64,000 bases of DNA from positions 2,201-66,200 of the forward strand of contig CAKUNS010000006.1 of NCBI GenBank assembly GCA_934668515.1, read 5' to 3'. Each line of letters starts with the position of its first letter. The stretch's first letter is position 1. Shown in pieces: positions 6,649 to 36,722 of this stretch. A program made the position numbers and the translations under genes. The notes beneath the pieces are model-generated. The model made no database searches and was not told the DNA's origin. It saw only the letters and a program-made list of their open reading frames with translations. Source of the DNA: an uncultured Eggerthellaceae bacterium (lineage in GTDB: Bacteria; Actinomycetota; Coriobacteriia; Coriobacteriales; Eggerthellaceae).

Positions 6649-6742
6649 TCCGAAACACGGCACTAGACCCAATCATTTTGGTTTCACCGCCTGGACAGGC
6701 GACGAACATAGGGTTGCAATCCAATAGTCGATCAGAAAGGGA

Positions 6743-7753
6743 ATGAACATGGCTATTGAAATTCTTTACGACAAGGACGTGAACCCCGAGATCATCCAGG
6801 GAAAGAAGATCGCCATCATCGGCTATGGCTCCCAGGGTCATGCCCATGCGCTTAATCTTCACGATTCCGGATGCGACGTTCGCGTTGGCCTTCGCCCCGA
6901 ATCCAAGTCTGCCGAGGAAGCTCGCGAGCATGGTTTGAAGGTCGTCGATATCGATACCGCAGCAGAAGAAGCCAACGTGGTCATGATCCTTATCCCCGAT
7001 GAGATCCAGGCCAAGACGTACGAGGAGCACATTGCGCCGCACCTCCATCCTGGTGACACGCTCGCGTTTGCTCATGGCTTCAACATCCACTATGGCTATA
7101 TCAAGGCTCCTGAAGGCGTCAACGTCATCATGGTTGCCCCTAAGGGCCCGGGTCATATCGTTCGTCGCCAGTACACCGAGGGTTCCGGCGTTCCTGATCT
7201 GTGCTGCGTCTACGAGGATGCTACCGGTGATGCTTGGGATATCGCGCTTTCTTATGGTTGGGCGATCGGCGGCGGCCGCGCTGGCCTTATGAAGGGCACC
7301 TTCGCTCAGGAGACTGAGGAAGACCTCTTCGGCGAGCAGGCGGTTCTTTGCGGTGGCCTGGTTGAGCTGGTCAAGGCTGGTTTTGAAACGCTGACCGAGG
7401 CAGGCTATCCGCCCGAGCTTGCTTACTTCGAGTGCTATCACGAAATGAAGATGATCGTCGACCTTATGTACGAGAGTGGCATCCACTTCATGAATTACTC
7501 TATCTCGAACACTGCAGAGTACGGCGAGTACTATGCTGGCCCCAAAGTCATCAACGATGAGTCCCGCAAGGCCATGAAGCTTATCCTCGAGCGCATCCAG
7601 AACGGTGAGTTCGCCAAGGAGTTCGTTGCTGACTGCAACAACAACCATAAGTGGCTGCTCGAGCAGCGTGAGGCTCTGAACAACCATCTCATCGAGACGA
7701 CCGGTGCTCAGGTTCGCAGCATGTTCACGTGGGTTAAGAAGTCCGAGGACTAG
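6743..7753 (+). CDS. ilvC: Ketol-acid reductoisomerase (class I, NADP)
   Basis: 336 aa, with [17 protein letters not shown] (Rossmann motif) and the conserved KARI C-terminal knotted domain. A GAAAGGGA RBS is present. Confidence 0.95.
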
Positions 7754-7818
7754 TTCGTATCAGCGTCTTAACGACATGATTTAAGTGCACAGTAGTCGCG
7801 ACTGCCTGTGCGCTCACC

Positions 7819-7866
7819 GACGGACCCGCTAGTGCGCTTGTGCTGACGGGTCCGCTTTGTGTTTAA
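7819..7866 (+). terminator. Terminator-like hairpin after ilvC
   Basis: CGGACCCG..(18-nt loop)..CGGGTCCG, followed by CTTTGTGTTT. Confidence 0.5.
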
Positions 7867-7922
7867 TAAGACTGCTGAAATCACTCTGCGGATTCGAGAA
7901 GTCTTAAGGGGCTGGTCCGATC

Positions 7923-9500
7923 ATGTCTAACAAGGTACTGGTAACCGAACGCGTTGACGCAACGTGCATCAACGTTTTGCGTATGCGTGGTTGCGAGGTT
8001 GAAACGCGTCTTGATTTGACCGAGGACGAGCTGGTCTCGTGCATCGACGGTTTCGACGCGATGGTGGTTCGTTCGCATACTCCAGTCACTCGTCGCGTTA
8101 TCGAGGCGGGTAAGTCGCTGAAGGTTATCGGCCGCGCCGGCGTCAGCATCGACAACATTGACGTCACGGCCGCAACCGAGGCTGGGATTATCGTTTGCAA
8201 CGCGCCGACATCCAACATCGTTTCCGCTGCCGAGTTTGCCATGAGCTTGATCTTGGCTTGTGCCCGCAAACTTCCTCAAGCAAATAAGTCCATGCACGAG
8301 GGCAAGTGGGAAACTGCTTTCGATGGTACGGAGCTGTACGAGAAAACGCTCGCTATCGTCGGCCTTGGCCGCGTTGGCGGATTGGTTGCCGAACGCGCAG
8401 CCGCCTTCGGCATGAAAATCGTCGGTTATGACCCTTATTGTAACGCTGATCGCGCGAGTGCCTTGGGCGTCACCCTGTATGAAAACCTGAACGACTTGCT
8501 TCCGCTTGCTGACGTCATCAGCGTTCACCTTCCGCGTACGTCCGAGACTCGTGGCATGTTCGGTCCCAACGAGTTTGCCATTATGAGGGATGACGTCATT
8601 CTGGTGAACGTTGCAAGGGGCGGTATCTTCGACGAAGCCTCGCTGGCCGATTTCGTCGCAGCTGGCAAGATCGGCGCTGTTGGACTGGATGTTCACGATG
8701 AGGAGCCGTGCTTTGAGTCGCCGCTGTATGAGTTCGACAATGTCATTCTCACTCCGCATATCGGAGCAGCTACGTTCGAGGCGCAGCGTCGTGCGGGTGT
8801 TCAGATCGCCAACTATGTCGCTGCTGGCCTTGCAGGTTCGCTTGTTCCCACTGCGGTTAACATGGCTCCTGTTCCGCCCGAGGTCCTTGATGCTGTTGGC
8901 CCTTATGTTCCCGCTTGCCAAATGCTTGGCAGCATGCTTGCGCAGATCAACCCCGCTATTCCGCAAACGCTTAAGTTCACTGCTTCGGGCAACATCGCCG
9001 CTGCCGATACCACCGTTTTGGTTGCAAGCGTTTTAAAGGGTCTGCTTTCTTACAAGAAGGGTGTCACGGTTACGCCCATAAATGCAGAGCAGGTTGCCAA
9101 GAGACACGGCATCGATGTGGTAACCGCATCCGACCCCAACACGCTTGGCTATTTCTCTTCGGTCTCCATTGTTGCTGACGGCATTGAGGCTTCATGCACC
9201 AGGTCTGATCCGGGTCGTCCTGCGCGCATCATCTCGTTATTTGGGTACGACATGGATATCGAGCCGGGTGAGCAGTCGCTCATTTTCGAGTACGGCGATG
9301 CATCCGGCCGCATTGGCGTCATCGGCACTATTTTGGGCCAGCACGACATCAACATCACTACCTTGAGGATCGGTACCCGACCAGACTCTGACAGGGCCGT
9401 TGTCTATATGAACGTTCAGGGCGATGTCACCGACGAGATCATCGGCGAGCTTCGCGAGGCGATCAGCGATCTGAAGAATCTTTGGTACGTAAAGCTGTAA
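7923..9500 (+). CDS. serA: D-3-phosphoglycerate dehydrogenase (long form with C-terminal ASB/ACT domains)
   Basis: 525 aa with a 2-hydroxyacid dehydrogenase core (..LAIVGLGRVGGLVAERA.., ..VARGGI.., ..LTPHIGA..) and a C-terminal regulatory region. Confidence 0.92.
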   Translation: MSNKVLVTERVDATCINVLRMRGCEVETRLDLTEDELVSCIDGFDAMVVRSHTPVTRRVIEAGKSLKVIGRAGVSIDNIDVTAATEAGIIVCNAPTSNIVSAAEFAMSLILACARKLPQANKSMHEGKWETAFDGTELYEKTLAIVGLGRVGGLVAERAAAFGMKIVGYDPYCNADRASALGVTLYENLNDLLPLADVISVHLPRTSETRGMFGPNEFAIMRDDVILVNVARGGIFDEASLADFVAAGKIGAVGLDVHDEEPCFESPLYEFDNVILTPHIGAATFEAQRRAGVQIANYVAAGLAGSLVPTAVNMAPVPPEVLDAVGPYVPACQMLGSMLAQINPAIPQTLKFTASGNIAAADTTVLVASVLKGLLSYKKGVTVTPINAEQVAKRHGIDVVTASDPNTLGYFSSVSIVADGIEASCTRSDPGRPARIISLFGYDMDIEPGEQSLIFEYGDASGRIGVIGTILGQHDINITTLRIGTRPDSDRAVVYMNVQGDVTDEIIGELREAISDLKNLWYVKL

Positions 9501-9525
9501 CCCCTGGGAAACTTTTTTCGGGAAA

Positions 9526-9565
9526 TCGTTCGACTTGTAACGTAATTGAAACGAACGAGTTTTTA
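9526..9565 (+). terminator. Weak terminator-like hairpin downstream of serA
   Basis: TCGTTCG..(19-nt loop)..CGAACGA, followed by GTTTTTAT. Confidence 0.4.
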
Positions 9566-9597
9566 TGCTGCAAGTCGTATGTTGAACGTTGAGGATC

Positions 9598-9635
9598 GGT
9601 TCCACTGTTCAAATAGGCAGTGGAACCTTTTTCTT
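9598..9635 (+). terminator. Strong rho-independent terminator-like hairpin 19 nt upstream of the leuA start
   Basis: GGTTCCACTG-(10-nt loop)-CAGTGGAACC is a perfect 10-bp stem, followed by TTTTTCTT. Confidence 0.7.
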
Positions 9636-9653
9636 ATGGAAAGGAGAGTACGC

Positions 9654-11186
9654 ATGGCGCGCAAAATCAAGATCTTTGACACTACCATGCGCGATGGCGA
9701 GCAATCGCCTGGCGCATCGATGAACACTGACGAGAAACTCGTGGTGACCCGCGAGCTACTGCGTATGAATGTTGACGTCATCGAGGCGGGTTTTCCAATT
9801 TCTTCGCCTGGTGATTTTGAGAGCGTCCGAAAGATCGCTGAGGTCATTGGCGACAACGCTATCGTGTGCGCACTTACCCGTGCCGTTGATAAAGACATCG
9901 AGGTAGCCGCTGACGCTCTCAAGTATGCTAAGCGCCCTCGCATCCATACCGGTCTGGGCGTTTCTCCGTCGCATATGCGCGACAAGCTTCACATCACCGA
10001 AGATCAATGCGTCGAGAAAGCGGCTCACGCGGTTGCCTACGCCAAGCAGTTCGTTGACGACGTTGAGGTTTATGCCGAAGACGCTGGGCGTTCGGATTAC
10101 GACTTTCTTGTTCGTGTGATTCAAGCAGCCGTTGATGCCGGCGCTACTGTTGTCAACATTCCTGATACCACGGGTTATTCATTGCCAAGCGAATTCGGAC
10201 GTCGTATCAAGTACTTGCACGACAATGTTAAGGGCATCGAGAACGTCGACATCTCCGTTCATTGCCATAATGATCTTGGCATGGCTACCGCTCTTGCCAT
10301 TGAGGGCGTCCGTAACGGCGCCACGCAAATCGAGTGCACCATTAACGGTTTGGGTGAGCGCGCCGGCAATACCGCCGTTGAAGAAGTGGTTATGGCCATC
10401 CGCATGCACGAGAAAGAGCTCGACGCCTTCACCGACGTGAACTCTCGTGAATTCGTGAAAGCGAGCCGCTTGATCACCAACATCACTGGAATGAGCGTTC
10501 AGGCTAATAAAGCCATCGTTGGTGCTAACGCGTTCGCGCATTCTTCGGGCATTCATCAGGATGGCGTTTTAAAGAAGCGAGACACGTACGAGATCATCGA
10601 TCCCGAGGATGTTGGAGCTGGCCATTCCAAGATCATCCTTACTGCGCGCAGCGGCCATGCGGCATTGAAGCATCGCTTGGAAGAGCTTGGCTATAACTAC
10701 GAAGGCGAGCAGCTTGATAAGGTCTACGAGGCGTTCCTGAACCTCGCCGACAAGAAGAAGGAAGTCTACGACGAAGATCTCGAGAGCCTTGTCAATGAGC
10801 AGTCGCGTACTGCGAAGGGCATCTACACTCTTAAGAGTCTTCAGGTTAGTTGCGGTTACCCGCTTACGCCTACCGCTACGCTTACCATGGCGGATGCCTT
10901 CGGCAACGTCAAAACAGTTGCCGCGTACGGCACCGGCCCGATTGATGCTGCATTCAAGGCCGTTGACATGATCGTGGATGTCGAAAACGACCTTCAGGAG
11001 TTCTCGGTTCAGTCCGTCAGCCGCGGCATCGATGCCCTGGGTGAGGTCACCGTTCGCCTTGCTGCAGCCGATGGCGAGGTGTTTATCGGACGCGGTTCCG
11101 ACAACGACATCATCGTTTCGTCCACTAAGGCTTACGTTAATGCTCTGAACAGGCTTCTTTCTGTTCATGCTGAACGCAATAAATAA
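9654..11186 (+). CDS. leuA: 2-isopropylmalate synthase
   Basis: [20 protein letters not shown] is the canonical LeuA N-terminus, and HCHNDLGMA and the LeuA dimerisation/regulatory C-terminus follow. I chose the ATG at 9654 (GGAAAGGAGAG RBS) rather than the track start 9546, which would run across the terminator hairpin. Confidence 0.93.
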
Positions 11187-26531: not shown

Positions 26532-27482
26532 ATGAAGATCCTGTTCATGGGCACGCCTGATATCGCAGCAAACGTGTTGTCGGTATTGGCGGATTCAAAA
26601 CACGAGGTTCTCGGTGTTTTCACTCGTCCCGATTCCGTATCGGGCCGTGGAAAGAAACTTCTCCCGTCTCCAGTTAAAGCAGTCGCGCTCGAGCACGGGT
26701 TTCCCGTCAACGAGTTCAAGTCTTTCAAGGACGGTTCTGCTTTCGAGCGAATCAAAGAGCTCAATCCTGATGCTATCTGCGTTGTGGCTTATGGTGCGCT
26801 TTTGCCCGAAGAGGTTTTGGGATTCCCGCGTTTCGGAAGCATCAACGTTCATGCTTCGCTTCTTCCGCGTTGGCGCGGCGCTGCTCCTATAGAACGCTGC
26901 ATCCTTGAGGGCGATGTTGAAACGGGCGTAAGCATTATGCAAATGGAAGCCGGTCTTGACACCGGTCCCTATTGCGTGCAGCGTGTCGTCTCGGTCGGTG
27001 AGAAGTATCATGCGGAACTCTCGCGCGATCTTGCCGAAGTCGGAGCAGAAGCATTGGTTTTTGCACTCGACCAAATCGAGGCAGGTACCGCCAAATGGAG
27101 CGTTCAGGATGATGCGCTCTCTAATTACGCTGCAAAAATCGACAAACACGAGCTTTATCTCGATCCTTCTGACGATGCCGAAACCATATGCAGGAAGGTA
27201 CGCGCTTCAAGCGATGCCCATCCTTCTCATGCAGTCATTGAAGGTCGTAAGGTGACTGTTTTGGCGTGCGAGATTGCTTCTGTCGAAGACGCACAGTATT
27301 TCGAGGGTCTTCAGTCTGGTCGGGCCGTATTCAGGACAAAGAAGCTGTTCCTCATGACCGGTACCGGCGCGGTTCGGGTTACCGTGCTCAAACCTGAGGG
27401 AAAGAAAGAAATGGATGCCCTGTCGTTCTGCGCAGGGATTCAAGGTGCTAAGAACAAAATCATGACTTGGGGGGCTATGTAA
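26532..27482 (+). CDS. fmt: Methionyl-tRNA formyltransferase
   Basis: It has ..ILFMGTPD.., ..SINVHASLLPRWRGAAPI.. and the C-terminal Fmt domain. It follows def, as is typical. Confidence 0.93.
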   Translation: MKILFMGTPDIAANVLSVLADSKHEVLGVFTRPDSVSGRGKKLLPSPVKAVALEHGFPVNEFKSFKDGSAFERIKELNPDAICVVAYGALLPEEVLGFPRFGSINVHASLLPRWRGAAPIERCILEGDVETGVSIMQMEAGLDTGPYCVQRVVSVGEKYHAELSRDLAEVGAEALVFALDQIEAGTAKWSVQDDALSNYAAKIDKHELYLDPSDDAETICRKVRASSDAHPSHAVIEGRKVTVLACEIASVEDAQYFEGLQSGRAVFRTKKLFLMTGTGAVRVTVLKPEGKKEMDALSFCAGIQGAKNKIMTWGAM

Positions 27483-29644
27483 TGGCTGATCAGCCAAAGA
27501 GCAATTACGACGGCAAGAAGAGCGGCGGATACTCGTCCAATCGCGGCCATGGAGGTGGCAAACCTGACGGCTACAAGGGTGGCGCAGGCAAAGGCGGCTA
27601 CAAAGGTGGCTCCGGTAAGTCCGGCGGCTACAAGGGCCATGGCGATTCCAAGGGCCGTCCTTATGGAAAGCGTGATGGTGAGTCACGTGATCGCCGCGAT
27701 GATCATCGCGGCGGTTCCGACTTCAAGAAAGGTTACAAGAAGCCTTACGAGCGCGACGATAGGCGCGGCGGAAAATTCGACGGCAAGAAGCGTGACGACA
27801 AGTTCGGCGGTAAACGCGACGGCAAATTCGAAGGCAGGCGCGACGACAAGTTCAACGACCGCAAGCGCAATGATAGATTCGATCATAAGCGTGACGATAA
27901 ATTCGACCGTAAAGGCAAGGGCGGTAACGGTCGCGATTTCAGCAAGTCCGATCGCGATGCCAAGTTCGGCGACAAGCCCCGTTCCTCCGGCCCGCGCGGT
28001 AATGGTAAGCCCGCTTTCAAGCCTCAGGACAACAAGGCCAAGCGCGTTTACAAGAACAAGAAAGCGTTCGATCAGCAGAAGGTAGCCGCCATTATGGGCA
28101 CCGATGCTGCTCCTTATAGGGGTGAGCTTGACCCGAAGAGGGGAGAGCGCTCCAATATCGCTCCGGGCAGGAAAACCCGCGAACTTCGCGAGATCGCTCA
28201 GGATGAAGAGCGCATGAGGGACGAGGAAGTCCGTCGTGAGCGCGAGAAGCTCGATGATGAGACCCTGCCTATGGAGAAGCGCTTCTATAAAAACGAGGCT
28301 AGCCCGGCACGTCTTGCCGCTCTTGATGTGACCCGTGCTGTCCGTAAGCGCAACGCCTATGCTCACGACCTCATCGAAAGCCGCATCGATACCTCTGGGA
28401 TGTCTCAAGCCGATCGCGCATTCGCTACGTTGCTCGTTCTTGGCGTTGTCAGCACCAGCGGCACTCTTGACGAGATCATCAACCGCGGCATGCGCAAGCC
28501 CACCGATGCCTTCGACGATGTTCGCGACGCGCTGCGTATCTCCACGTATGAGATCATCTTCCTGGGCAAAACCCCGCATGCTGCTCTCGACCAGGGCGTC
28601 GAACTCGTTCGTGCGGTTTCCCCCAGTGCTTCTGGCCTGGGCAATGCCATCCTTCACCGCATTCTCGAGATGAAGGATTCGTTTCCCTTCGGTGATCCGA
28701 ACCACGACATCGAAGCGCTTGCTCGCGTATATGCCTTCCCCGTATGGCTTGCTCGCAAGTTGGTTGAGGATCTTGGCGCGAAGGAAGCGGCTATGTTCAT
28801 GCGCGCTTCGAACGACCCTGCTCCGCTGTTCATTTCTGTGAATTCGCTTAAGACGACTGACGCCGATGTAGCCCGCGTGTTCGAGGCTGCAGGCGCCACG
28901 CTTCGTCCGGCACTCATCGATGAGAAGGAAATCGTCGGTTGCTATCATGTGTCCGACCCGCGTGCCATCGCTGACGAAAACGTCCGTACTTTGTTCGACG
29001 AAGGAAAGATCCTCGTCAGCGATGCTGCAGCTCAGGCGGTCGCAGGCGCTTTGTTCGATAACGCCACGCCCTCAACTGTTCTTGAAGTTGGCGCTGGCCG
29101 TGGTACGAAGACGGTCCTTATCCAGAGCGATGCTCAACGAATCATGGGTCATCAGGTTGAGCTCACCTCGCTTGATCTTCACGAGTTCAAGGTAAAACTG
29201 CTCGAGAAGCGCGCAGCCGATTACGATGTGCAGTTGAAGCAAGCGGTTTGCGGCAATGCAACCAGGCTTGACACGGTTCTGCCTTATGAGACTTATCAAA
29301 CCGTGTTCATCGACGCCCCGTGTTCGGGTCTTGGCACTCTTAGGCGCCACCCCGAGATCCGTTGGCGCGTTAAGCCTGCTCATATCCAAGAGCTCGCCGA
29401 CACCGGACTCGCGATGCTTCGTAGCGCCGCATCCCATGTTGAGATGGGCGGCCAGTTGGTTTACGCCACGTGCACCGTCGCCTATGCCGAGAACTATGGT
29501 GTAGTAAAACGCTTCCTTGAGGAGACGGAAGAGGGCAGGGATTTCCGCCTTGCGCCCATCGATGGCAAGCCGTGCTTCTCATCGCAGCTGACCGTCGGTT
29601 CGCCCGATGCGCATTTTGCTGCAAAATTCATCAAAGTGAAATGA
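27482..29644 (+). CDS. rsmB: 16S rRNA (cytosine-C5)-methyltransferase RsmB/Sun-like, with a 273-aa low-complexity basic N-terminal extension
   Basis: The C-terminal 450 aa comprise a NusB-like domain and a methyltransferase core (..DAPCSGLGTLRRHPEIRW.., ..LVYATCT..). I chose the ATG at 27482 (TAATG overlap with the fmt stop). The track start 27467 is a TTG. Confidence 0.85.
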   Translation: MADQPKSNYDGKKSGGYSSNRGHGGGKPDGYKGGAGKGGYKGGSGKSGGYKGHGDSKGRPYGKRDGESRDRRDDHRGGSDFKKGYKKPYERDDRRGGKFDGKKRDDKFGGKRDGKFEGRRDDKFNDRKRNDRFDHKRDDKFDRKGKGGNGRDFSKSDRDAKFGDKPRSSGPRGNGKPAFKPQDNKAKRVYKNKKAFDQQKVAAIMGTDAAPYRGELDPKRGERSNIAPGRKTRELREIAQDEERMRDEEVRREREKLDDETLPMEKRFYKNEASPARLAALDVTRAVRKRNAYAHDLIESRIDTSGMSQADRAFATLLVLGVVSTSGTLDEIINRGMRKPTDAFDDVRDALRISTYEIIFLGKTPHAALDQGVELVRAVSPSASGLGNAILHRILEMKDSFPFGDPNHDIEALARVYAFPVWLARKLVEDLGAKEAAMFMRASNDPAPLFISVNSLKTTDADVARVFEAAGATLRPALIDEKEIVGCYHVSDPRAIADENVRTLFDEGKILVSDAAAQAVAGALFDNATPSTVLEVGAGRGTKTVLIQSDAQRIMGHQVELTSLDLHEFKVKLLEKRAADYDVQLKQAVCGNATRLDTVLPYETYQTVFIDAPCSGLGTLRRHPEIRWRVKPAHIQELADTGLAMLRSAASHVEMGGQLVYATCTVAYAENYGVVKRFLEETEEGRDFRLAPIDGKPCFSSQLTVGSPDAHFAAKFIKVK
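27569..27915 (+). repeat. In-frame degenerate tandem coding repeats (GGYKG units, then R-D-D-K-F units) within the rsmB 5' region
   Basis: GGCTACAA(G/A)GG recurs three times in 27569-27640. (C/G)GACGA(C/T)AA(G/A)TTC recurs in 27770-27915, encoding ..RDDKFGGKRDGKFEGRRDDKFNDRKRNDRFDHKRDDKFDRK... Confidence 0.7.
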
Positions 29645-29649
29645 TGATC

Positions 29650-29702
29650 AACCCCTCCTCTGCTATGTTTAACTAATATTCAGAGGTGGGGTTCTTATTT
29701 TA
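29650..29702 (+). terminator. Hairpin terminator after rsmB
   Basis: AACCCCTCCTCTG..(18-nt loop)..CAGAGGTGGGGTT forms a 13-bp stem with one mismatch, followed by CTTATTTTA. Confidence 0.6.
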
Positions 29703-29712
29703 GGAGACTTCA

Positions 29713-30297
29713 ATGGAGCCAGATTACAAAGAAGTAGCCAATCGCATTAAGTCGCTGCGTGAGGACATGGACCTAACCTTGCAGGAGATGGCCGACGCTA
29801 CCGGCCGAACCATCGAGGAGTATGCGGCTCAGGAATCAGGCGAAAGTGATCTCTCGTTCACGTTCCTATACAAATGCGCTGCAAAACTCGGCGTCGACCC
29901 CATAGAGCTGCTCAGCGGCGAAACCCCGCATCTAACGGGCTACTCCCTTGTTCGAGCAGGCGAGGGTCTTTCTGTTAAAAGACGCGAAGGGTTCGAGTAC
30001 CTCCATAAGGCACCTTACCTTAATAACAAACTCTGTGAACCATTCGTCGTTACGGCTCCCTACATTGAAGAGGAGCAGGACAAGCCTATCCATCAGTCCT
30101 TCCATAAGGGACAGGAGTTCGACTATATCATTTCGGGTCGCATGCGTTTCGCTTATGATAACCATATCGAGGAACTTGGGCCTGGCGACACTCTTCTATA
30201 CGATTCCGCTCGTGCTCATGGAATGATCGCTATTGGCGGCGAGCCGTGCGTATTCGTTGCAATCGTCATGTACCCGGACGGTCGTCAGATTATCTAG
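29713..30297 (+). CDS. XRE-family HTH transcriptional regulator with a C-terminal cupin (ligand-sensing) domain
   Basis: It has an N-terminal HTH_3 (..IKSLREDMDLTLQEMADATGRTIEEYAAQESG..) and a C-terminal cupin_2 (..GQEFDYIISGRMRF....LGPGDTLLYDSARAHGM..). A TAGGAGA RBS is present. Confidence 0.85.
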   Translation: MEPDYKEVANRIKSLREDMDLTLQEMADATGRTIEEYAAQESGESDLSFTFLYKCAAKLGVDPIELLSGETPHLTGYSLVRAGEGLSVKRREGFEYLHKAPYLNNKLCEPFVVTAPYIEEEQDKPIHQSFHKGQEFDYIISGRMRFAYDNHIEELGPGDTLLYDSARAHGMIAIGGEPCVFVAIVMYPDGRQII

Positions 30298-30401
30298 GCG
30301 CTGCGCAATCGACTCTTGGGTAATCCCCAAGCAGCAGCGTGCCTGCGGCGCAGTCGCCTTACGACACTAGATAATCCGATACCTTCAGTAAGGAAGACGA
30401 T

Positions 30402-32177
30402 ATGAGAAACCTGCATAAAAGGTATGTCGAAGAGGCATACGATAGTAAAGGCGTGCTTAGCGACTTCAAAGTAAACATCCCGGAAGACTTCAATTTCGGG
30501 TACGACGTCGTTGATGACATCGCGGTAAACGATCCCGACCGTCGTGCTATGGTATGGCGCAATCCCGAAGGCGAAGAGCACCTCTTCACTTTCGCGGATA
30601 TGAAGAAGTGGTCCGACAAAACCGCTAATTACTTTGCAGAACATGGCATTGGCAAGGGCGATTACGTTATGGTCATCCTTCGCCGTCACTATCAGTTCTG
30701 GTTTGTGGCTACTGCCTTGGCCAAACTTGGCGCGGTCATGGTTCCTGCGACGTTTATGTTGAAGGAGCACGACCTTGTTTATCGCCTGAACGGCGCATCC
30801 ATCAAAGCAGTTGTTTGCACCACGGTAGGCGACATCGCCCAGATCGTTGACAACGTCGTTGCAGAATGCCCGACCGTTGAGAATCTCTTCCTGGTGAACG
30901 GCGCTGGCGGTGGTTTGAGCCCTCAAGACGAAAATGGCAACTGGATCCTTCCGGAAGGCGGGCTTGTTGGCCCGGTTCTTTCTGGCGAACAGGGCATTTG
31001 CGCTGCCGCTGTTCAGCGCGAGGGCTGGCATGACTTCAACACCGGCGTCCGTCATGCGTCGGATGAATTCGAACACGTGAACACACTTGCTGCCGACCCT
31101 ATGCTCATGTATTTCTCCAGCGGCACTTCGGGCAACCCAAAGATGGTTTTGCACAATTCCACCTACGCAGTCGCCCATTTGGTTACCGCAAAACACTGGC
31201 ATAACGTCGATCCCGAAGGTTTGCATTTCACTATTGCCGACACCGGCTGGGGCAAGGCTGTCTGGGGCAAGTTCTATGGCCAATGGCTCATGGAGGCATG
31301 TGTTTTCACGTACGATTACGATCGTTTCCATGCGGGCGAGCTATTGTCGCTTATCAGCCAATATAGCATCACCACGCTTTGCTGCCCGCCCACCATGTAT
31401 CGTCTGTTCATGCAGGAGGGCGTCGAGAAGTACGACCTTTCCACGCTTAAGTACTCCACTACTGCCGGAGAAGCATTGAATCCCGACATCTTCGATTACT
31501 GGAAGGAGCACACCGGCCTGGTTATTTATGAGGGCTTCGGACAGACCGAAACGCCCTTGACCGTAGCCAATCTGGTTAATTCAACTCCGCGTTCCGGCTC
31601 GATGGGCAAGCCTTCGCCGCTTTACGAGGTCGAGATCCAGCGTGCCGACGGTTCTCGCTGCAATACCGGCGAGACGGGTGAGATCTGCATCAAGATCGAT
31701 CCTCGGCCTGCAGGCATCATGATGTGTTACTACCGAAACGAAGAGCGTACCGCAGCTGCGATGCATGACGGTTGGTACCATACCGGCGACACCGCTTGGG
31801 TCGATGAGGATGGTTACTTCTGGTATGTCGGTCGAAATGACGACGTCATCAAGTCGAGCGGCTATCGTATCGGGCCATTCGAAATCGAAAGCGTCTTGCT
31901 TGAGCATGAGGCTGTTCGCGAGTGCGCCGTTACTGGTGTTCCCGACCCAGTCCGTGGCAAAGCCGTCAAAGCTACCATCGTGTTGCAAGACGGCATTCAT
32001 GGCTCCGAGATGCTTACGAAAGAGCTTCAAACCTGGGTTAAGCACAAAACCGCTCCGTACAAGTACCCGCGCATCATCGAGTATGTCGAAGAACTTCCCA
32101 AAACTGTCAACGGCAAGATCCGTCGAGTCGCCATTCGTGAGAACGATGCCAAGAAGGGCATCGACGGTTTGGTCTAA
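30402..32177 (+). CDS. AMP-forming acyl-CoA synthetase/ligase (medium-chain acyl-CoA synthetase-like; substrate unknown)
   Basis: 591 aa with the AMP-binding signature ..MYFSSGTSGNPKMV.., and with ..YEGFGQTE.., ..YHTGDTAWVDEDGYFWYVGRNDDVIKSSGYRIGPFEIE.. and the C-terminal ..PKTVNGKIRR... Confidence 0.88.
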   Translation: MRNLHKRYVEEAYDSKGVLSDFKVNIPEDFNFGYDVVDDIAVNDPDRRAMVWRNPEGEEHLFTFADMKKWSDKTANYFAEHGIGKGDYVMVILRRHYQFWFVATALAKLGAVMVPATFMLKEHDLVYRLNGASIKAVVCTTVGDIAQIVDNVVAECPTVENLFLVNGAGGGLSPQDENGNWILPEGGLVGPVLSGEQGICAAAVQREGWHDFNTGVRHASDEFEHVNTLAADPMLMYFSSGTSGNPKMVLHNSTYAVAHLVTAKHWHNVDPEGLHFTIADTGWGKAVWGKFYGQWLMEACVFTYDYDRFHAGELLSLISQYSITTLCCPPTMYRLFMQEGVEKYDLSTLKYSTTAGEALNPDIFDYWKEHTGLVIYEGFGQTETPLTVANLVNSTPRSGSMGKPSPLYEVEIQRADGSRCNTGETGEICIKIDPRPAGIMMCYYRNEERTAAAMHDGWYHTGDTAWVDEDGYFWYVGRNDDVIKSSGYRIGPFEIESVLLEHEAVRECAVTGVPDPVRGKAVKATIVLQDGIHGSEMLTKELQTWVKHKTAPYKYPRIIEYVEELPKTVNGKIRRVAIRENDAKKGIDGLV

Positions 32178-32947
32178 TGGGTTCGCTCGTTCAAAGCCTG
32201 CGCGACTCGATCGCGCAGGTAACCGTGATCTGCGGGCATTACGGAGTAGGGAAAACCAACTTCAGCGTCAATCTGGCTTGCGACCTTGCCGACATTGGCA
32301 AGCACGTGACCCTAATCGACCTCGATATCGTGAATCCCTATTTTCGAGCCTCCGAACAGCGAAAGCTTCTCGAAGCCCATGGCATAACTTTGATCGCGCC
32401 GGTTTTCGCTGAGGCTGGTTCGAGTCTGGATGTGCCAAGTCTTCGGGGATCGATCACTTCTGCCGTGCAAGATGCATGGCAGAAGGTCGACGAAGGTCGT
32501 GTGGTGCTCATCGACGCTGGCGGCGACGATGTGGGTGCAACTGCTTTAGGCAGGTTTTCCGAAGTTGTGAAGCTTGGTGACTATGCGATGCTTTACTTGG
32601 TGAACGCCTGTCGTTTTGACACTCAGCAAGCTTCTGAGGCGGTCGAAATGCTCTCGCAAATTCAAAACGCATGTGGCTTGAAAGCAACCGCCATCGTCGA
32701 CAGCGCGCATCTCAAAGATGAAACTTCGATTGACCTGCTGTGCGATGCGTTTGATTTAGCCTCTCAGGTTTCGCAAATCACTCAGCTACCGCTTGCATGT
32801 AAAACGGTAAAGCGCGAGTTTGCTTCCGACTTTCAACGTGCGCTTGACGATAGAATCGAACATACGAAAGAAGGATCAGGGCCGGATGTTCCTTCCCGCG
32901 ATTTCGTTTATCCGGTCAGTATTTACGTGAAGAACCCCTGGGAATAG
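32177..32947 (+). CDS. Uncharacterised SIMIBI-class (MinD/ParA/CooC-like) P-loop NTPase with an atypical Walker A
   Basis: 256 aa. The Walker A is VICGHYGVGKTN, ..TLIDLD.. follows, and the Walker B-like motif is ..VVLIDAGGDD... The start overlaps the ligase stop as TAATG. No specific family is recognisable by eye. Confidence 0.6.
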   Translation: MGSLVQSLRDSIAQVTVICGHYGVGKTNFSVNLACDLADIGKHVTLIDLDIVNPYFRASEQRKLLEAHGITLIAPVFAEAGSSLDVPSLRGSITSAVQDAWQKVDEGRVVLIDAGGDDVGATALGRFSEVVKLGDYAMLYLVNACRFDTQQASEAVEMLSQIQNACGLKATAIVDSAHLKDETSIDLLCDAFDLASQVSQITQLPLACKTVKREFASDFQRALDDRIEHTKEGSGPDVPSRDFVYPVSIYVKNPWE

Positions 32948-32974
32948 GGTTTCTTAGATAGAAGAGGGGGATCT

Positions 32975-33181
32975 ATGGCGAGAATGATCGTCGATGAGTT
33001 CTTCTGCAAAGGCTGCGGTCTTTGCGTCGATGCTTGTCCGTTGGGCATCGTTGAGCTCGACAATGAACGGATCACCGACAAGGGTTACCATCCCGCGCAT
33101 TGCATCGATCAGTCGAAATGCGTCGGCTGCGTTTCATGCGCATTGATGTGCCCCGATGTTGCAATCACGGTCGAGAGGTGA
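32975..33181 (+). CDS. 2x[4Fe-4S] ferredoxin-type delta subunit of 2-oxoacid:ferredoxin oxidoreductase
   Basis: 68 aa with two CxxCxxCxxxCP motifs ([12 protein letters not shown] and [12 protein letters not shown]). An AGAGGGGGA RBS is present. Confidence 0.85.
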
Positions 33182-33186
33182 TTCAC

Positions 33187-34251
33187 ATGTCCGAAAAAGT
33201 CTTGATGAAGGGCAACGAGGCTCTTGCGGAAAGCGCCATTCGCGCAGGATGCAAGTTCTTCTTCGGTTACCCCATCACCCCGCAAACCGAGCTTGCTGCA
33301 TACATGGCAAAGCGCATGCCCAAAGAGGGCGGCACGTACCTGCAGGCTGAAAGCGAAGTTGCGGCCATCAACATGGTTTACGGCGCATCTGCCGCAGGCG
33401 CCCGCGTAATGACCTCGTCTTCCTCTCCGGGAATCTCGTTGAAGAGCGAAGGCATTTCATATATGGCAGGCGCCGATCTTCCCGGGGTCATCATCAACGT
33501 TGAGCGTGGCGGCCCAGGTCTTGGCTCCATTCAGCCTTCCCAGTCCGACTACTGGCAGGCAACCAAGGCGCTTGGTCATGGTGACTTCCAGCTGCTAGTG
33601 TTCGCGCCTTCCACTGTTCAGGAAATGGCTGATCTCGTTTATTATGCGTTTGACGCAGCAGACAAGTACCGCATGCCTGCAATGATCCTTGCTGACGGCA
33701 TGCTTGGTCAGATGATGGAACCCGTTGTTCTTCCCGAGCGCATCGAGTCGCTTCCTGAGAAGCCCTGGGCAACCACCGGCCACAAGAACGCTCGTCCTCA
33801 CAACGTGGCGAATTCGCTGTACCTTACGGCGGAGGAGCTTGAGCGTCTGAATTTCGAGCGTTTTGAACGCTACAAGACTATCAAGGAAACCGAGCAGCGC
33901 GCCGAGACGTTCATGTGCGACGACGCCGAGATCGTTCTCGTCGCTTTCGGTGCTTCGGCGCGAATCGCACGCAGCGCTGTTAGGACTGCCCGCGAAAAGG
34001 GAATCAAAGCCGGCCTTGTCCGTCCTATCACGTTGTGGCCGTTCCCGGTCGACGCCATTCGCGCAACGCTGCCTACGGCTAAGACCTACCTCTCGGTTGA
34101 GATGAACATGGGTCAGATGGTCGAAGACATTCGTTTGGCTGTGAACGGGGAAGCTCCAGTTGAATTCTATGGCCGCACCGGTGGTGTAATCCCCACGCCG
34201 ATTGAGGTTTTGGCAAAGATTGAAGAGATCAATGAAAGGACGGGTGAGTAA
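33187..34251 (+). CDS. 2-oxoacid:ferredoxin oxidoreductase alpha subunit (VorB/KorA/PorA-like)
   Basis: The N-terminus ..LMKGNEALAESAIRAGCKFFFGYPITPQTE.. is typical of OFOR domain I. I chose the ATG at 33187, 5 nt after the ferredoxin stop, rather than track start 33100. Confidence 0.88.
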   Translation: MSEKVLMKGNEALAESAIRAGCKFFFGYPITPQTELAAYMAKRMPKEGGTYLQAESEVAAINMVYGASAAGARVMTSSSSPGISLKSEGISYMAGADLPGVIINVERGGPGLGSIQPSQSDYWQATKALGHGDFQLLVFAPSTVQEMADLVYYAFDAADKYRMPAMILADGMLGQMMEPVVLPERIESLPEKPWATTGHKNARPHNVANSLYLTAEELERLNFERFERYKTIKETEQRAETFMCDDAEIVLVAFGASARIARSAVRTAREKGIKAGLVRPITLWPFPVDAIRATLPTAKTYLSVEMNMGQMVEDIRLAVNGEAPVEFYGRTGGVIPTPIEVLAKIEEINERTGE

Positions 34252-34252
34252 C

Positions 34253-35086
34253 ATGGCGAATGAAACCGGCAACATCGTTTTCCAGCGCCCGCATTCCCTG
34301 CTGCCCGTCGTGACCAATTTCTGCCCTGGCTGCACTCACGGTATCGTTATGCGCCTGGTTGCCGAAAGCATCGACGAGCTTGACATCGAGGGTTCCACGA
34401 TTGGAATCGCGCCCGTCGGTTGCTCTGTCATGGCATACGATTTCTTCGGTTGTGACATGGTTGAAGCCGCTCACGGTCGTGCACCGGCGGTTGCAACGGG
34501 TGTCAAACGCGTTAATCCCGACAATATCGTTTTCGCTTATCAGGGCGACGGCGACCTTGCCAGCATCGGAATGGCTGAAACCATTCACGCGGCTACGCGC
34601 GGCGAGAATATCACCGTTATCTTCATCAATAACGCCATCTACGGCATGACCGGCGGCCAGATGGCTCCGACAAGCCTTCCCAACCAGGTCACGCAAACTT
34701 CGCCCTATGGTCGCGACGTCAATACCGCAGGCTATCCGGTTCGCGTATGCGAGTTACTGAGCTCTCTTGACGGCCCGGCATATCTCGAGCGTGTCTGCGT
34801 GGACTCCTCGAAGAACGTGCGCAACGCCAAACGCGCCATCAAGAAGGCCTTCCAGAACCAGGTCGACGGCGTGGGCTATTCGCTCATCGAAGTTGTTTCC
34901 ACGTGCCCGACCAACTGGGGCATGACTCCGCAAAAGGCTTTCGAGTGGATGCGCGAGAACATGCTTCCGTATTATCCGCTGGGCGTCTATCGCGACGTTG
35001 TAGCCGATGGTTACGCAAACGCCCGCGAAGCCGCTGGGGCACGTGCTGCAGATTGCCCGATCGCATGCAAGAAAGACGGTGAGTAG
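34253..35086 (+). CDS. 2-oxoacid:ferredoxin oxidoreductase beta (TPP-binding) subunit
   Basis: It has ..FCPGCTHG.. and the TPP-binding ..YQGDGDLASIG....NNAIYGMTGGQ.. region. The ATG at 34253 lies 1 nt after the alpha stop. Confidence 0.88.
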   Translation: MANETGNIVFQRPHSLLPVVTNFCPGCTHGIVMRLVAESIDELDIEGSTIGIAPVGCSVMAYDFFGCDMVEAAHGRAPAVATGVKRVNPDNIVFAYQGDGDLASIGMAETIHAATRGENITVIFINNAIYGMTGGQMAPTSLPNQVTQTSPYGRDVNTAGYPVRVCELLSSLDGPAYLERVCVDSSKNVRNAKRAIKKAFQNQVDGVGYSLIEVVSTCPTNWGMTPQKAFEWMRENMLPYYPLGVYRDVVADGYANAREAAGARAADCPIACKKDGE

Positions 35087-35087
35087 C

Positions 35088-35624
35088 ATGTCCAACGAAA
35101 TGAAATTCGTACTTGCGGGTTTCGGCGGTCAGGGCATCCTCTTCGCCGGTAAAGTTATCGCTTATGTCGGTTTGCTTGACAACCGCGAGCTCTCTTGGCT
35201 GCCTTCCTACGGTCCTGAGATGCGCGGCGGCACTGCCAACTGCAGCGTTACCTTGTCGGATGAGCCCATTGGCTCTCCGCTGATCCTCGATCCGAATGTC
35301 TTGGTTGCCATGAACCAGCCGTCGCTTGATAAGTTCGAAGACGCGGTTGTTCCCGGTGGTTCGATCTTCGTCGATTCGTCTTTGGTCAACAGGCTTCCGA
35401 GCCGTGAAGACGTGAATGTCTTTGCTATTCCTGCAACCAGCATTGCCGAAGAGCAGGGGATCAAAGGTCTTGGAAACATCGTCATGATCGGCAAGCTGTT
35501 CAAGGAAACCGCATTTTGCGACAAGGAGACCCTCGAGGCAGCTATTCGCAAAGTCGTGCCTGCGCGTAAGGCTAACATGATTGATGCGAACCTTAAGGCT
35601 GTCGATCTGGGCGCATCGCTCTAA
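35088..35624 (+). CDS. 2-oxoacid:ferredoxin oxidoreductase gamma subunit
   Basis: It has ..LAGFGGQGILFAGK.. and ..PSYGPEMRGGTANC.., the OFOR gamma signature. The ATG at 35088 lies 1 nt after the beta stop. Confidence 0.85.
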   Translation: MSNEMKFVLAGFGGQGILFAGKVIAYVGLLDNRELSWLPSYGPEMRGGTANCSVTLSDEPIGSPLILDPNVLVAMNQPSLDKFEDAVVPGGSIFVDSSLVNRLPSREDVNVFAIPATSIAEEQGIKGLGNIVMIGKLFKETAFCDKETLEAAIRKVVPARKANMIDANLKAVDLGASL

Positions 35625-35661
35625 TTGCTCCGTTTGAACGGTTGCTTTAACTATCGAAAAA

Positions 35662-35689
35662 GGCGCTCCATTGCGGAGCGCCTTTTTGG
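35662..35689 (+). terminator. Rho-independent terminator after the oxidoreductase genes
   Basis: GGCGCTCC-ATTGC-GGAGCGCC is a perfect 8-bp GC-rich stem, followed by TTTTTGG. Confidence 0.8.
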
Positions 35690-35745: not shown

Positions 35746-36075
35746 CTACCAGTGCTCAATCGCGATAGTCAGGTACTTATTCGAAACGGCTTCACGGCAA
35801 CATACTGCCGCAAATCGCTCTACGTGATCAAGCCCAATATGGCGACTATCGATTTCGAGCCTGACTCTAACGGGATGCGTTATAGAGGAGAGCTCATCGG
35901 CAAGTGCTGAGAGATTCCCTCCATAATACGACGGGAAATTCAGTTGATTCGAGAGCGACTGGTGCATTTCCTCTATCGTGTCGAGGTCCGCTCCTTTCAA
36001 AACCGCAAGCGACGCACCATGGGAAACGCACGTCCCGTAATCATGCTCATTGCACGGATTGTTGCCGATGATCAT
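35746..36075 (-). CDS. Barstar-family ribonuclease inhibitor (immunity protein)
   Basis: ..LNFPSYYGGNLSALADEL.. aligns with the barstar helix ..LALPEYYGENLDALWDCL.. (Asp39-equivalent retained). The ATG at 36075 overlaps the barnase stop as TGATG. Confidence 0.75.
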   Translation of the reverse strand: MIIGNNPCNEHDYGTCVSHGASLAVLKGADLDTIEEMHQSLSNQLNFPSYYGGNLSALADELSSITHPVRVRLEIDSRHIGLDHVERFAAVCCREAVSNKYLTIAIEHW

Positions 36076-36584
36076 CAATACAGCCTTTCAAAAGTGCGGT
36101 AGTGGTCTTGAGTGTAATAAATCAAGCCATCGTTTGAGAAGACGATGCGTTTCGCACCTCGATGTCCACCGTGATAGTCGATGTCGCATTCGGTCCAAAT
36201 GCGCCCATCTTTGTCGGGCAACAGGCCGTCATCGTTGTGGAATCGACTTCCGCTAATGCTTTTACCAGGGCAAACATCTTGTAAATTTCCATCTTGCGCA
36301 TCCCATCCAGCATCTCGCGCTTTCGTCTTAGATATGAAGTTGGATGGGAGGTGACCGTACTCGTTAATATACGCTGCGACTTCATCCTTGCTGGTGTAGT
36401 GCCCGTCTTCCTGAATCGCAATGCTGCTGATTTGAATGCTTGCTGAGGTTTCGTGCTCTTCGCTGTGATAAATGGAAACGCCATGCGAGCAGCTAATTAG
36501 CATGATTGGCAAAAGAGCAAGCAGTGCGATTGAGAACAAGCGCATAAGCTTCCCTATGAATGATGTCGACTTGTTCTGGCTCAT
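36075..36584 (-). CDS. Barnase-family extracellular guanyl-specific ribonuclease with a lipoprotein-type signal peptide
   Basis: ..LPSNFISKTKARDAGW...GNLQDVCPGKSISGSRF...GRIWTECDIDY..GHRGAKRIVFS.DGLIYYTQDHYRTF.. is collinear with barnase, including the Glu73, Arg83, Arg87 and His102 equivalents. The N-terminus MSQNKSTSFIGKLMRLFSIALLALLPIMLISC ends in a lipobox (L-I-S-C). I chose the ATG at 36584, preceded by AAGGAG. Confidence 0.85.
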   Translation of the reverse strand: MSQNKSTSFIGKLMRLFSIALLALLPIMLISCSHGVSIYHSEEHETSASIQISSIAIQEDGHYTSKDEVAAYINEYGHLPSNFISKTKARDAGWDAQDGNLQDVCPGKSISGSRFHNDDGLLPDKDGRIWTECDIDYHGGHRGAKRIVFSNDGLIYYTQDHYRTFERLY

Positions 36585-36722
36585 GCTTCTCCTTGCTAGG
36601 ATCATTACCCGTCGTCGGAGAACAATAGCAGATCAGATCCTGTCACGACATCTGATCGTTCATTGGGGGATTCCGCTTCAAACCGGCAGCGCTTCTATTC
36701 TGTTACGAAGCCTGATTCGCAA

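Follow-up and report, generated by a model that had tools for sequence, protein, structure and literature searches.

A conserved gene module of an uncultured Eggerthellaceae bacterium that may serve salvage of branched-chain carboxylic acids

We analyzed a stretch of 64,000 nt (hereafter, the window) from the genome of an uncultured Eggerthellaceae bacterium (assembly GCA_934668515.1, contig CAKUNS010000006.1, positions 2,201 to 66,200 of the forward strand), in which seven genes encode a regulator, an acyl-CoA ligase, a nucleoside triphosphatase (NTPase) and the four subunits of a 2-oxoacid:ferredoxin oxidoreductase (OFOR). As described in the initial annotation of the window, all seven open reading frames (ORFs) lie on the forward strand between positions 29713 and 35624, and their domains fit that description (Table 1). 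The tight spacing that had been reported was confirmed by reading the sequence: the stop codon of the ligase gene and the start codon of the NTPase gene overlap by one base (TAA/ATG; GGTCTAATGGGT; positions 32175-32179), and the gaps that follow the NTPase gene through gamma are 27, 5, 1 and 1 nt. For alpha, beta and gamma, the ORF listing begins further upstream than the initial annotation, but the starts of the latter are the start codons found by independent gene calls on four metagenome contigs that are 98-99% identical. A purine-rich ribosome-binding site (GGAG/GGTGAG-type) precedes each downstream start. The module looks native since its G+C content equals that of the window (0.543 and 0.540, respectively).

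Table 1. Genes of the module and hairpins within and around it (positions in the window).
Feature	Positions	Strand	Domains or basis
Upstream hairpin and T-run, end of the fmt-rsmB genes	29650-29702	+	fold and T-run
XRE-cupin regulator, 194 aa	29713-30297	+	Pfam HTH_3/HTH_19 (residues 10-70) and Cupin_2 (128-184)
GC-rich hairpin between regulator and ligase, candidate terminator/attenuator	30298-30352	+	fold
AMP-forming Macs/MbcS-type acyl-CoA synthetase, 591 aa	30402-32177	+	AMP-binding and AMP-binding_C
Stand-alone P-loop NTPase (SIMIBI class), 256 aa	32177-32947	+	CbiA/ParA-like N-terminus
OFOR delta, 68 aa, 2x[4Fe-4S] ferredoxin	32975-33181	+	Fer4 family matches
OFOR alpha, 354 aa, VorB type	33187-34251	+	POR_N and PFOR_II
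OFOR beta, 277 aa, thiamine diphosphate and [4Fe-4S]	34253-35086	+	TPP_enzyme_C
OFOR gamma, 178 aa	35088-35624	+	Pfam POR, E 4e-36
Bidirectional intrinsic terminator: A-run, 13-bp GC-rich stem, T-run	35657-35689	.	fold

The ligase presents the Pfam domains AMP-binding (E 1.5e-52) and AMP-binding_C (E 1.3e-22), and its translation contains the ANL core motifs YFSSGTSGNPK, GFGQTET, YHTGD, GRNDDVIKSSGYRIG and PKTVNGKIRR. The initial annotation had named a plain acetyl-CoA synthetase as an outcome that would contradict its reading. This is not the case: the scores of the enzyme remain below the cut-offs of all the acetate-CoA ligase models (TIGR02188, 243 of 725 bits; NF001208, 248 of 657; NF003313, 358 of 729), and it reads FGQTET rather than the WWQTETG of acetyl-CoA synthetase, i.e., the Trp before QTETG is lacking. 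The best solved structure is that of MacsMa from Methanosarcina acetivorans (3ETC; E 6.3e-191), with an identity of about 55-60% (55% over the C-terminal 380 residues, plus a strongly conserved N-terminal block). Following Meng et al. 2010, we take the acyl pocket of MacsMa to consist of W237, W254, K256, W259, C298 and G351; these residue types fit 3ETC exactly (chain index minus 23), and all six (WWKWCG) are identical in the ligase and MacsMa. At the position of G351, the ligase thus has a Gly where acetate-specific synthetases have a Trp that limits them to acetate. MacsMa favors 2-methylbutyrate and completes the reaction with that acid, but it aborts with most other acids by releasing or hydrolyzing the non-preferred acyl-adenylates (PMC10455477). 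The highest-scoring NCBIfam model of the ligase is MbcS, and the S. aureus MbcS prefers isobutyrate and 2-methylbutyrate (PMC13584741). Based on these similarities, the ligase is assigned as a Macs-type short/medium branched-chain acyl-CoA synthetase. We also observed that residues ~160-205 contain a Gly/Pro-rich insertion of ~35 residues (ENLFLVNGAGGGLSPQDENGNWILPEGG...) that is lacking in MacsMa and in the second ligase type (557 residues) described below.

Profile comparisons likewise separate the oxidoreductase from the pyruvate and 2-oxoglutarate enzymes, against which the initial annotation had proposed to place it. The alpha subunit passes the cut-off of the NCBIfam VorB model (2-oxoisovalerate; NF005507, 550.8 bits for a cut-off of 399) and falls below those of the KorA/OorA, PorA and IOR models (NF006412, 319 of 411 bits; NF007206, 241 of 579; PorA, 115 of 550; IOR_alpha, 84 of 651). 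The cofactor set of an OFOR is complete: beta carries the thiamine diphosphate motif GDGD...NN and the Cys ligands of a [4Fe-4S] cluster (CPGC, GCS and TCP), delta carries two CxxCxxCxxxCP motifs for [4Fe-4S] clusters, and the gamma domain is present. The solved relatives are distant. By its alpha profile and motifs, the enzyme is classified as a VorB-type four-subunit 2-oxoacid:ferredoxin oxidoreductase. The 2-oxoisovalerate oxidoreductase (VOR)-like class is broad. Its members comprise branched-chain enzymes, HpdDEFG (acting on hydroxyphenylpyruvate) and aromatic-preferring enzymes (PMC13285125; bioRxiv 10.64898/2026.01.29.702580), as well as C. thermocellum Pfor4 (PMC13011478), such that neither the substrate nor the direction can be read from the family name alone.

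The regulator combines an N-terminal HTH_3 domain and a C-terminal Cupin_2 domain (Pfam) in a single polypeptide of ~190 residues, which places it among XRE-cupin regulators. Its best structure match is the HTH_3 family regulator 1Y9Q (E 1.7e-6; residues 7-189), and its cupin domain is a putative ligand sensor. The regulator gene is paired with a ligase gene in every related locus that carries it. A conserved operator-like motif was not found in the spacers of these related loci; one candidate operator/promoter motif of the regulator-ligase spacers (GAT[AG]ATC / nATnAT) was rejected, as its position is inconsistent and many loci lack it.

For the NTPase, similarity to generic CbiA/ParA models is limited to the first ~40 residues, and matches to PDB sequences are confined to the P-loop. 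An AlphaFold2 model was obtained with a predicted local distance difference test (pLDDT) score of 83.3 and a predicted template modeling (TM) score of 0.85. Foldseek matched this model with probability 1.0 to FtsY/Ffh (signal recognition particle GTPases), MinD and ATPase-type HypB, with a TM score of only ~0.5. In the model, the protein is predicted to adopt the SIMIBI P-loop fold, with a Walker A motif, a DxxG-like Walker B motif and a seven-stranded, mostly parallel sheet. Across 24 diverse members of the family, the invariant motifs are GHYGxGKTN, DxD(I/V)VNPYFRAxEQR, DxGGDD and a C-terminal NPWE. Two identities were rejected. The NTPase is not a deviant-Walker-A ATPase of the MinD/ParA/Mrp kind because a His occupies the position of the signature Lys (GHYGxGKTN as compared to xKGGxGK[ST]), and it is neither an Fe-S carrier nor a NifH-like electron donor because no invariant or near-invariant Cys, and no CxxC, is found among the 24 members. 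The family comprises 690 cluster representatives (50% identity) at E<=1e-30; no domain fusion was found among the best 150 of these, all of which are single-domain proteins.

We analyzed the conservation of the module by scanning an alignment of the NTPase against one genome per species. This search returned 80 loci, onto which all seven proteins were mapped, and 61 of these were informative, their contigs extending 3 kb or more beyond the NTPase gene on its downstream side. In 59 of the 61 loci, the NTPase gene is followed on the same strand by delta, alpha and beta, with gamma found wherever the contig reaches that far; delta lies at most 300 nt from the NTPase gene in 56 of the 61. A divergent NTPase (39% identical) likewise precedes delta-alpha-beta-gamma. 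The hosts of this core include Coriobacteriia (Eggerthellaceae and others, such as Eggerthella sinensis, Gordonibacter, Adlercreutzia, Rubneribacter and Senegalimassilia) but also Oscillospiraceae, Lachnospiraceae, Ruminococcus (including R. flavefaciens) and archaea of the Methanomassiliicoccales. The gene order put forward in the initial annotation is therefore conserved: the NTPase-delta-alpha-beta core spans two domains of life, and the seven-gene order was found in 21 Coriobacteriia-type loci, namely all those with enough upstream sequence, where a regulator-ligase pair of the window type lies directly upstream of the core. Across Coriobacteriia, Clostridia and Methanomassiliicoccales, the alpha subunits are 64-86% identical. 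This identity is remarkably high across two domains, which suggests that anaerobes of the gut and rumen have exchanged the core of the module by gene transfer.

Several loci depart from this pattern. At a few of them, seemingly unrelated genes (MATE efflux, YitT-like, lipoproteins) are found between the NTPase and delta, and three NTPase homologues have no oxidoreductase genes after them (L068, 8001-8678; L049, 8001-8708; L088, 732-1637). By a look at the sequence, L049 presents a regulator, a ligase and the NTPase followed by an apparent amino-acid ABC transporter permease and ATPase; in L088 the homologue follows a Gln-synt_C gene. Module proteins 72-86% like those of the window, as similar as in Coriobacteriia, were found in L020 (Hallerella sp.), L072 (Butyrivibrio sp. 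CAG:318) and L080 (Bacteroides salyersiae), and L080 resembles the Methanomassiliicoccales loci in its identity levels. Such values suggest that these contigs were mis-binned or that the module was transferred very recently. The recurring flanks of the 80 loci are lineage-specific housekeeping genes (rsmB, fmt, pyrR/pyrB and spo).

The regulator and ligase genes vary as a unit around this core. A second regulator-ligase cassette was found 3' of gamma in 13 loci; in most of these, its ligase is 44-47% and its regulator ~30% identical to those of the window, and in L007 and L010 it carries an unrelated, PRK12583-like type of ligase (~25% identical). The latter type is also found among the cassettes of Methanomassiliicoccales, whose loci present one to three divergently oriented regulator-ligase cassettes. 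Across the three types of cassettes, the divergence of the regulators tracks that of the ligases. Moreover, the six residues of the pocket are conserved in all the Macs-type paralogues, with different residues in between (GKAV, AKFG, AKTA/AKNA). This is the pattern expected if the cassettes were duplicated sensor-enzyme pairs, specialized for similar acids and feeding one broad oxidoreductase.

A search with the MacsMa sequence followed by contig look-up revealed counterparts of the module in methanogens. In Methanosarcinaceae (L091, 6287-11883; also L092), an HTH-cupin regulator, a 91% orthologue of MacsMa, delta, alpha and a fused beta-gamma are found, such that the biochemically studied MacsMa itself would seem to come from a module of this kind. 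This layout of delta, alpha and beta-gamma presumably matches the VorC/VorB/VorA arrangement known from Methanothermobacter. In Methanothrix (L089, 7001-8893; also L090), the protein P0367 is a Macs-type ligase of 630 residues with a C-terminal delta-type 2x[4Fe-4S] domain; an HTH-cupin regulator precedes it, and alpha and a fused beta-gamma come after it. About 15 such ligase-ferredoxin fusions (~630 residues) were found among the best 120 matches of the MacsMa search. Relative to the window, the methanogen proteins are 34% (regulator), 49-50% (ligase and alpha), 46-50% (beta) and 41-42% (gamma) identical, and the Methanosarcinaceae and Methanothrix loci contain no NTPase. The fusion argues for consecutive action of the ligase and the oxidoreductase. 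Amino-acid fermentation and fatty-acid lipids are both absent from methanogens, and the only sensible flow in these organisms is from acid to acyl-CoA to 2-oxoacid. The methanogen loci constitute the strongest backing for an acid-to-2-oxoacid reading of the module, which they support by homology and short of proof for the organism of the window.

The initial annotation had further described the module as bracketed by hairpins at 29650-29702 and 35662-35689, and both were found to be far more stable than shuffled sequence. The upstream hairpin (29650-29693, plus CTTATTTT) folds at -23.5 kcal/mol (z -3.2; 0/200 shuffles as stable), and its T-run ends 10 nt before the start codon of the regulator. 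In the 98-99% identical contigs, a change in its 5' arm converts a T:T mismatch into an A:T pair. The downstream hairpin (35657-35687; AAAAAGGCGCUCC..GGAGCGCCUUUUU) has a z of -4.5, again with 0/200 shuffles as stable. It combines an A-run and a T-run, lies between gamma and a convergent barstar/barnase pair and probably terminates transcription from both sides. A generic terminator scan listed neither of the bracketing hairpins and its 11 hits are about the 9.0 expected by chance; the evidence for the hairpins thus consists of fold statistics and T-runs. No sigma-70-like promoter was found in the 19 nt between the upstream hairpin and the start of the regulator gene. Scored against the Rfam gathering thresholds, the whole window presents no T-box, riboswitch or leader, and the lone sub-threshold hit near the module is meaningless.

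The proposal that the seven genes form one transcript is plausible for the six tightly coupled genes from the ligase to gamma and doubtful at the junction of the regulator and the ligase. A stable hairpin starts there directly after the stop codon of the regulator (TAGGCG...), and the 104-nt spacer folds at -35.5 kcal/mol (z -2.6). Hairpins of unrelated sequence occupy the same place in most, but not all, Eggerthellaceae loci with long spacers (z mostly -2 to -5; equivalents were noted at L005, L009, L011, L018, L021, L025, L027 and L035); they are weak in four long-spacer Eggerthellaceae loci (z -0.4 to -1.6) and absent from loci with spacers of 20-50 nt (L006, L007, L010, L016 and L072). This element looks like a terminator or an attenuator, and the regulator may therefore form a separate transcription unit, with ligase-to-gamma as the operon proper. 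Termination downstream of the ligase and ahead of the oxidoreductase genes, which would have contradicted the initial annotation, finds no structural counterpart: the ligase and NTPase genes overlap, and the NTPase-delta spacer folds no better than shuffled sequence.

The genes on both sides of the module were also inspected. Upstream, an RsmB-type 16S rRNA methyltransferase (27467-29644, forward strand) has a low-complexity N-terminal extension before its NusB-like domain; the extension spans ~260 residues and abounds in Lys, Arg, Asp and Gly. The length of the protein varies between 687 and 712 residues in near-identical contigs. Downstream, and convergent with the module, the reverse strand encodes a secreted barnase-type ribonuclease (PF00545) and a barstar inhibitor (PF01337) at 35746-36605.

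The initial annotation had interpreted the module as a route of acid activation followed by reductive carboxylation. This interpretation is supported by the AMP-forming Macs-type ligase, the VorB-type alpha, the tight coupling of the genes, the conservation of the module, its cassettes and the regulator-ligase-VOR loci of methanogens with their fusion. The direction of flux, the exact acids, the ligand of the regulator and the role of the NTPase are inferred. With moderate confidence, we propose that the module is a native operon that uses short branched-chain carboxylic acids of the gut, by reductive carboxylation, for amino-acid salvage. The likely candidate substrates would be 2-methylbutyrate, isobutyrate and isovalerate. 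Under this proposal, the XRE-cupin regulator would sense the acid or its CoA ester and control expression. The ligase would then make the acyl-CoA, converting ATP to AMP and PPi, and the oxidoreductase would convert the acyl-CoA, CO2 and reduced ferredoxin into the matching 2-oxoacid. Finally, housekeeping aminotransferases would yield isoleucine, valine or leucine, which would spare the de novo ilv/leu pathway. Catabolic VOR clusters contain a phosphotransacylase and a kinase or ADP-forming ligases, and an AMP-forming ligase beside an OFOR has been read as biosynthetic (PMC13285125).

Several points weigh against this proposal. As previously reported for the window, de novo ilv/leu genes are encoded in the same stretch (2592-11186, forward strand: ilvD, ilvB, a probable ilvN, ilvC, serA and leuA, with the phosphoglycerate dehydrogenase gene between ilvC and leuA), and the route would therefore be unneeded for prototrophy. 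OFORs are reversible, and their sequence gives no direction. Around the 80 loci, we found no conserved aminotransferase, transporter, ptb/buk or electron-transfer genes. The module lacks a linked aminotransferase or transporter, and in 20 Clostridia loci the NTPase-OFOR core has no ligase nearby. The family assignments are also incomplete: the ligase is a relative of MbcS but not an MbcS equivalog (468.9 bits for a cut-off of 850), and beta, gamma and delta, for which no specific model exists, pass no curated cut-off (best scores of 117 of 402, 119 of 235 and 59 of 125 bits, respectively). Moreover, the four-subunit VOR-type enzymes of C. sporogenes, C. difficile and C. thermocellum run in the oxidative direction (PMC13285125, PMC13011478), and some VOR-like enzymes favor aromatic 2-oxoacids (bioRxiv 10.64898/2026.01.29.702580).

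Alternatively, the oxidoreductase could act oxidatively in place of the branched-chain 2-oxoacid dehydrogenase (Bkd) alongside an acid-scavenging ligase, the two converging on branched acyl-CoA primers for iso- and anteiso-fatty acids; we consider this, the main rival, unlikely. Anteiso-C15:0, a fatty acid primed by 2-methylbutyryl-CoA, is abundant in several Eggerthellaceae. In C. thermocellum, the four-subunit Pfor4 stands in for Bkd and is needed for branched fatty acid synthesis through the supply of lipid primers (PMC13011478), and in S. aureus MbcS feeds exogenous branched acids into this pool, with mbcS discussed together with the bkd locus (PMC13584741). The loss of kor2AEBG in B. fragilis is rescued by phospholipids or oleate (PMC11304471), which we would link to primer supply. 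Taken together, the data from Clostridium, Staphylococcus and Bacteroides lend plausibility to this rival. However, the same module is found with up to three ligase cassettes in Methanomassiliicoccales and in a three-subunit version in Methanosarcinales. The lipids of archaea are isoprenoid ethers. In addition, the fusion of the ligase and delta in Methanothrix suggests consecutive rather than parallel steps, and two routes to one product in one coupled operon would be less economical than two consecutive steps. The archaeal modules and the fusion thus argue against lipid primers as the general function. Since the oxidoreductase is reversible, salvage and lipid-primer use could nevertheless coexist.

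We give still less credit to the possibility that the same mechanism acts on other substrates, i.e., aryl-acetates for aromatic amino acids, propionate for 2-oxobutyrate, or succinate and acetate for 2-oxoglutarate and pyruvate. The window ligase has the pocket of MacsMa residue for residue, an enzyme that releases or hydrolyzes most non-preferred acyl-adenylates (PMC10455477), and alpha remains under the Kor, Oor, Por and Ior cut-offs. These observations have to be set against the VOR-like enzymes that prefer aromatic substrates (HpdDEFG, PMC13285125; two Blautia enzymes, bioRxiv 10.64898/2026.01.29.702580), the broad VOR of C. sporogenes, which also turns over pyruvate (bioRxiv 10.64898/2026.01.29.702580), the link of B. 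fragilis Kor2 to 2-oxoglutarate formation (PMC11304471), and the unrelated PRK12583-like ligase (~25% identical) that joins the module in some loci. A systems study of Eggerthella lenta assigned the use of acetate to Ack/Pta together with a single-chain PFOR rather than to the seven-gene module.

An AMP-forming acetyl-CoA synthetase has been reported to run in reverse in Syntrophus. Oxidative catabolism of the Stickland type, in which branched 2-oxoacids would be converted to acyl-CoA and a reversed ligase would turn acyl-CoA, AMP and PPi into acid and ATP, nevertheless appears very unlikely despite the established catabolic role of VOR in Clostridia (PMC13285125; bioRxiv 10.64898/2026.01.29.702580), as catabolic VOR clusters use Pta/Ptb and a kinase or ADP-forming ligases (PMC13285125), the methanogen counterparts cannot be catabolic and the window contains biosynthetic ilv/leu genes. 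A VOR of Blautia hydrogenotrophica annotated with five locus tags (RUMHYD_00549-00553) has been reported to turn over branched 2-oxoacids and to respond to branched-chain amino acids by induction (bioRxiv 10.64898/2026.01.29.702580). Its fifth gene might be an NTPase homologue, and if so, the NTPase-linked class of enzymes would also work oxidatively.

The near-obligate position of the NTPase gene ahead of one oxidoreductase clade points to an accessory role. In the salvage route that we propose, the NTPase would be a dedicated accessory of this clade, with assembly or cofactor loading, or a role as regulatory partner, as the favored possibilities. By analogy with the SIMIBI maturation NTPases (HypB, UreG, CooC, Mrp/NBP35, NifH and MinD), its role would be assembly or cofactor loading: the P-loop fold class is common to both, and so are the stand-alone size and the position of the gene directly ahead of a metalloenzyme operon. 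The NTPase differs from these proteins by its low structural similarity (TM ~0.5), by the lack of the signature Lys (GHYGVGKT) and of any conserved Cys or CxxC, and by its own family-specific motifs (NPYFRAxEQ, DxGGDD and the C-terminal NPWE). A bolder possibility, which we regard as very unlikely, is that the NTPase takes part in the reaction as a fifth component and couples the hydrolysis of NTP to the activity of the oxidoreductase, for example by gating or driving an uphill reductive carboxylation or by handing over the acyl-CoA from the ligase. This would be compatible with an uncharacterized family whose genes are almost always directly before delta, with the translational coupling to the ligase in the window, and with the lack of the metal- or cluster-binding Cys on which most cluster-carrying and Ni-inserting SIMIBI proteins (NifH, Mrp/NBP35, CooC and HypB) depend. 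If true, the module would represent a class of NTP-assisted 2-oxoacid synthases spread by gene transfer among Coriobacteriia, Clostridia and Methanomassiliicoccales of the gut and rumen.

Much of the underlying biology is already known. As a physiological trait of rumen and gut anaerobes, the reductive carboxylation of branched-chain volatile fatty acids was recognized in the 1960s, reportedly through the work of Allison and Bryant, and the supplementation of ruminant feed with these acids rests on it. Anabolic VOR and MacsMa are known as well, and the logic of a ligase beside an OFOR is known from the Bacteroides IOR (PMC13285125). Among the closest known systems is the MacsMa module of Methanosarcinales, which shares with the window the 6/6 pocket residues and a ligase located after an HTH-cupin regulator and before VOR genes; it differs in that the window ligase carries the ~35-residue insertion, whereas the methanogen VOR has a fused beta-gamma and no NTPase, and the regulators are only 34% identical. 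The alpha subunit of the window belongs to the NCBIfam VorB subfamily, of which the anabolic Methanothermobacter VorABC is presumably the founding member. Unlike VorABC, the oxidoreductase of the window has four separate subunits, an NTPase and a bacterial host. VorABC was assigned the same reaction as proposed here, from acyl-CoA, CO2 and reduced ferredoxin to 2-oxoacid (PMC3087415). The VORs of Clostridia (C. sporogenes CLOSPO_00146-00149 and C. thermocellum Pfor4) present the delta-alpha-beta-gamma layout and belong to the same broad class (PMC13011478; bioRxiv 10.64898/2026.01.29.702580), but by description their clusters contain kinases and phosphotransacylases or no ligase, are oxidative and come with no mention of an NTPase. 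In Bacteroides, an AMP-forming arylacetate-CoA ligase is likewise found beside an OFOR and read as reductive carboxylation for amino acids (PMC13285125), although this enzyme belongs to the two-subunit IOR family, with a ligase of another family, aromatic substrates and no cupin regulator or NTPase reported. The S. aureus MbcS, in contrast to the window ligase, supplies lipid primers in an aerobic organism with Bkd rather than an OFOR.

The initial annotation was not aware of a dedicated module of this kind. In the open-access full-text literature, we found no description of a regulator, Macs-type ligase and VOR unit or of the regulator-ligase-NTPase-VOR module, nor of the multi-cassette architecture, the ligase-ferredoxin fusion or an NTPase family tied to an oxidoreductase clade. 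The idea that an AMP-forming ligase beside an OFOR indicates biosynthesis had already been voiced for the Bacteroides IOR (PMC13285125). The gene kit, its NTPase partner and the swappable sensor-ligase cassettes are apparently undescribed.

These results suggest several consequences for the biology of these organisms. The kit composed of a sensor, a Macs-type ligase and a VorB-type oxidoreductase can be searched in genomes and would predict which gut, rumen and methanogen species live off branched acids, and the ligase-ferredoxin fusion ties the activation and carboxylation steps together. The paired sensor-ligase cassettes could become acid-specific biosensors. Finally, the almost invariable location of the NTPase family next to a single oxidoreductase clade provides a clear starting point toward its function.

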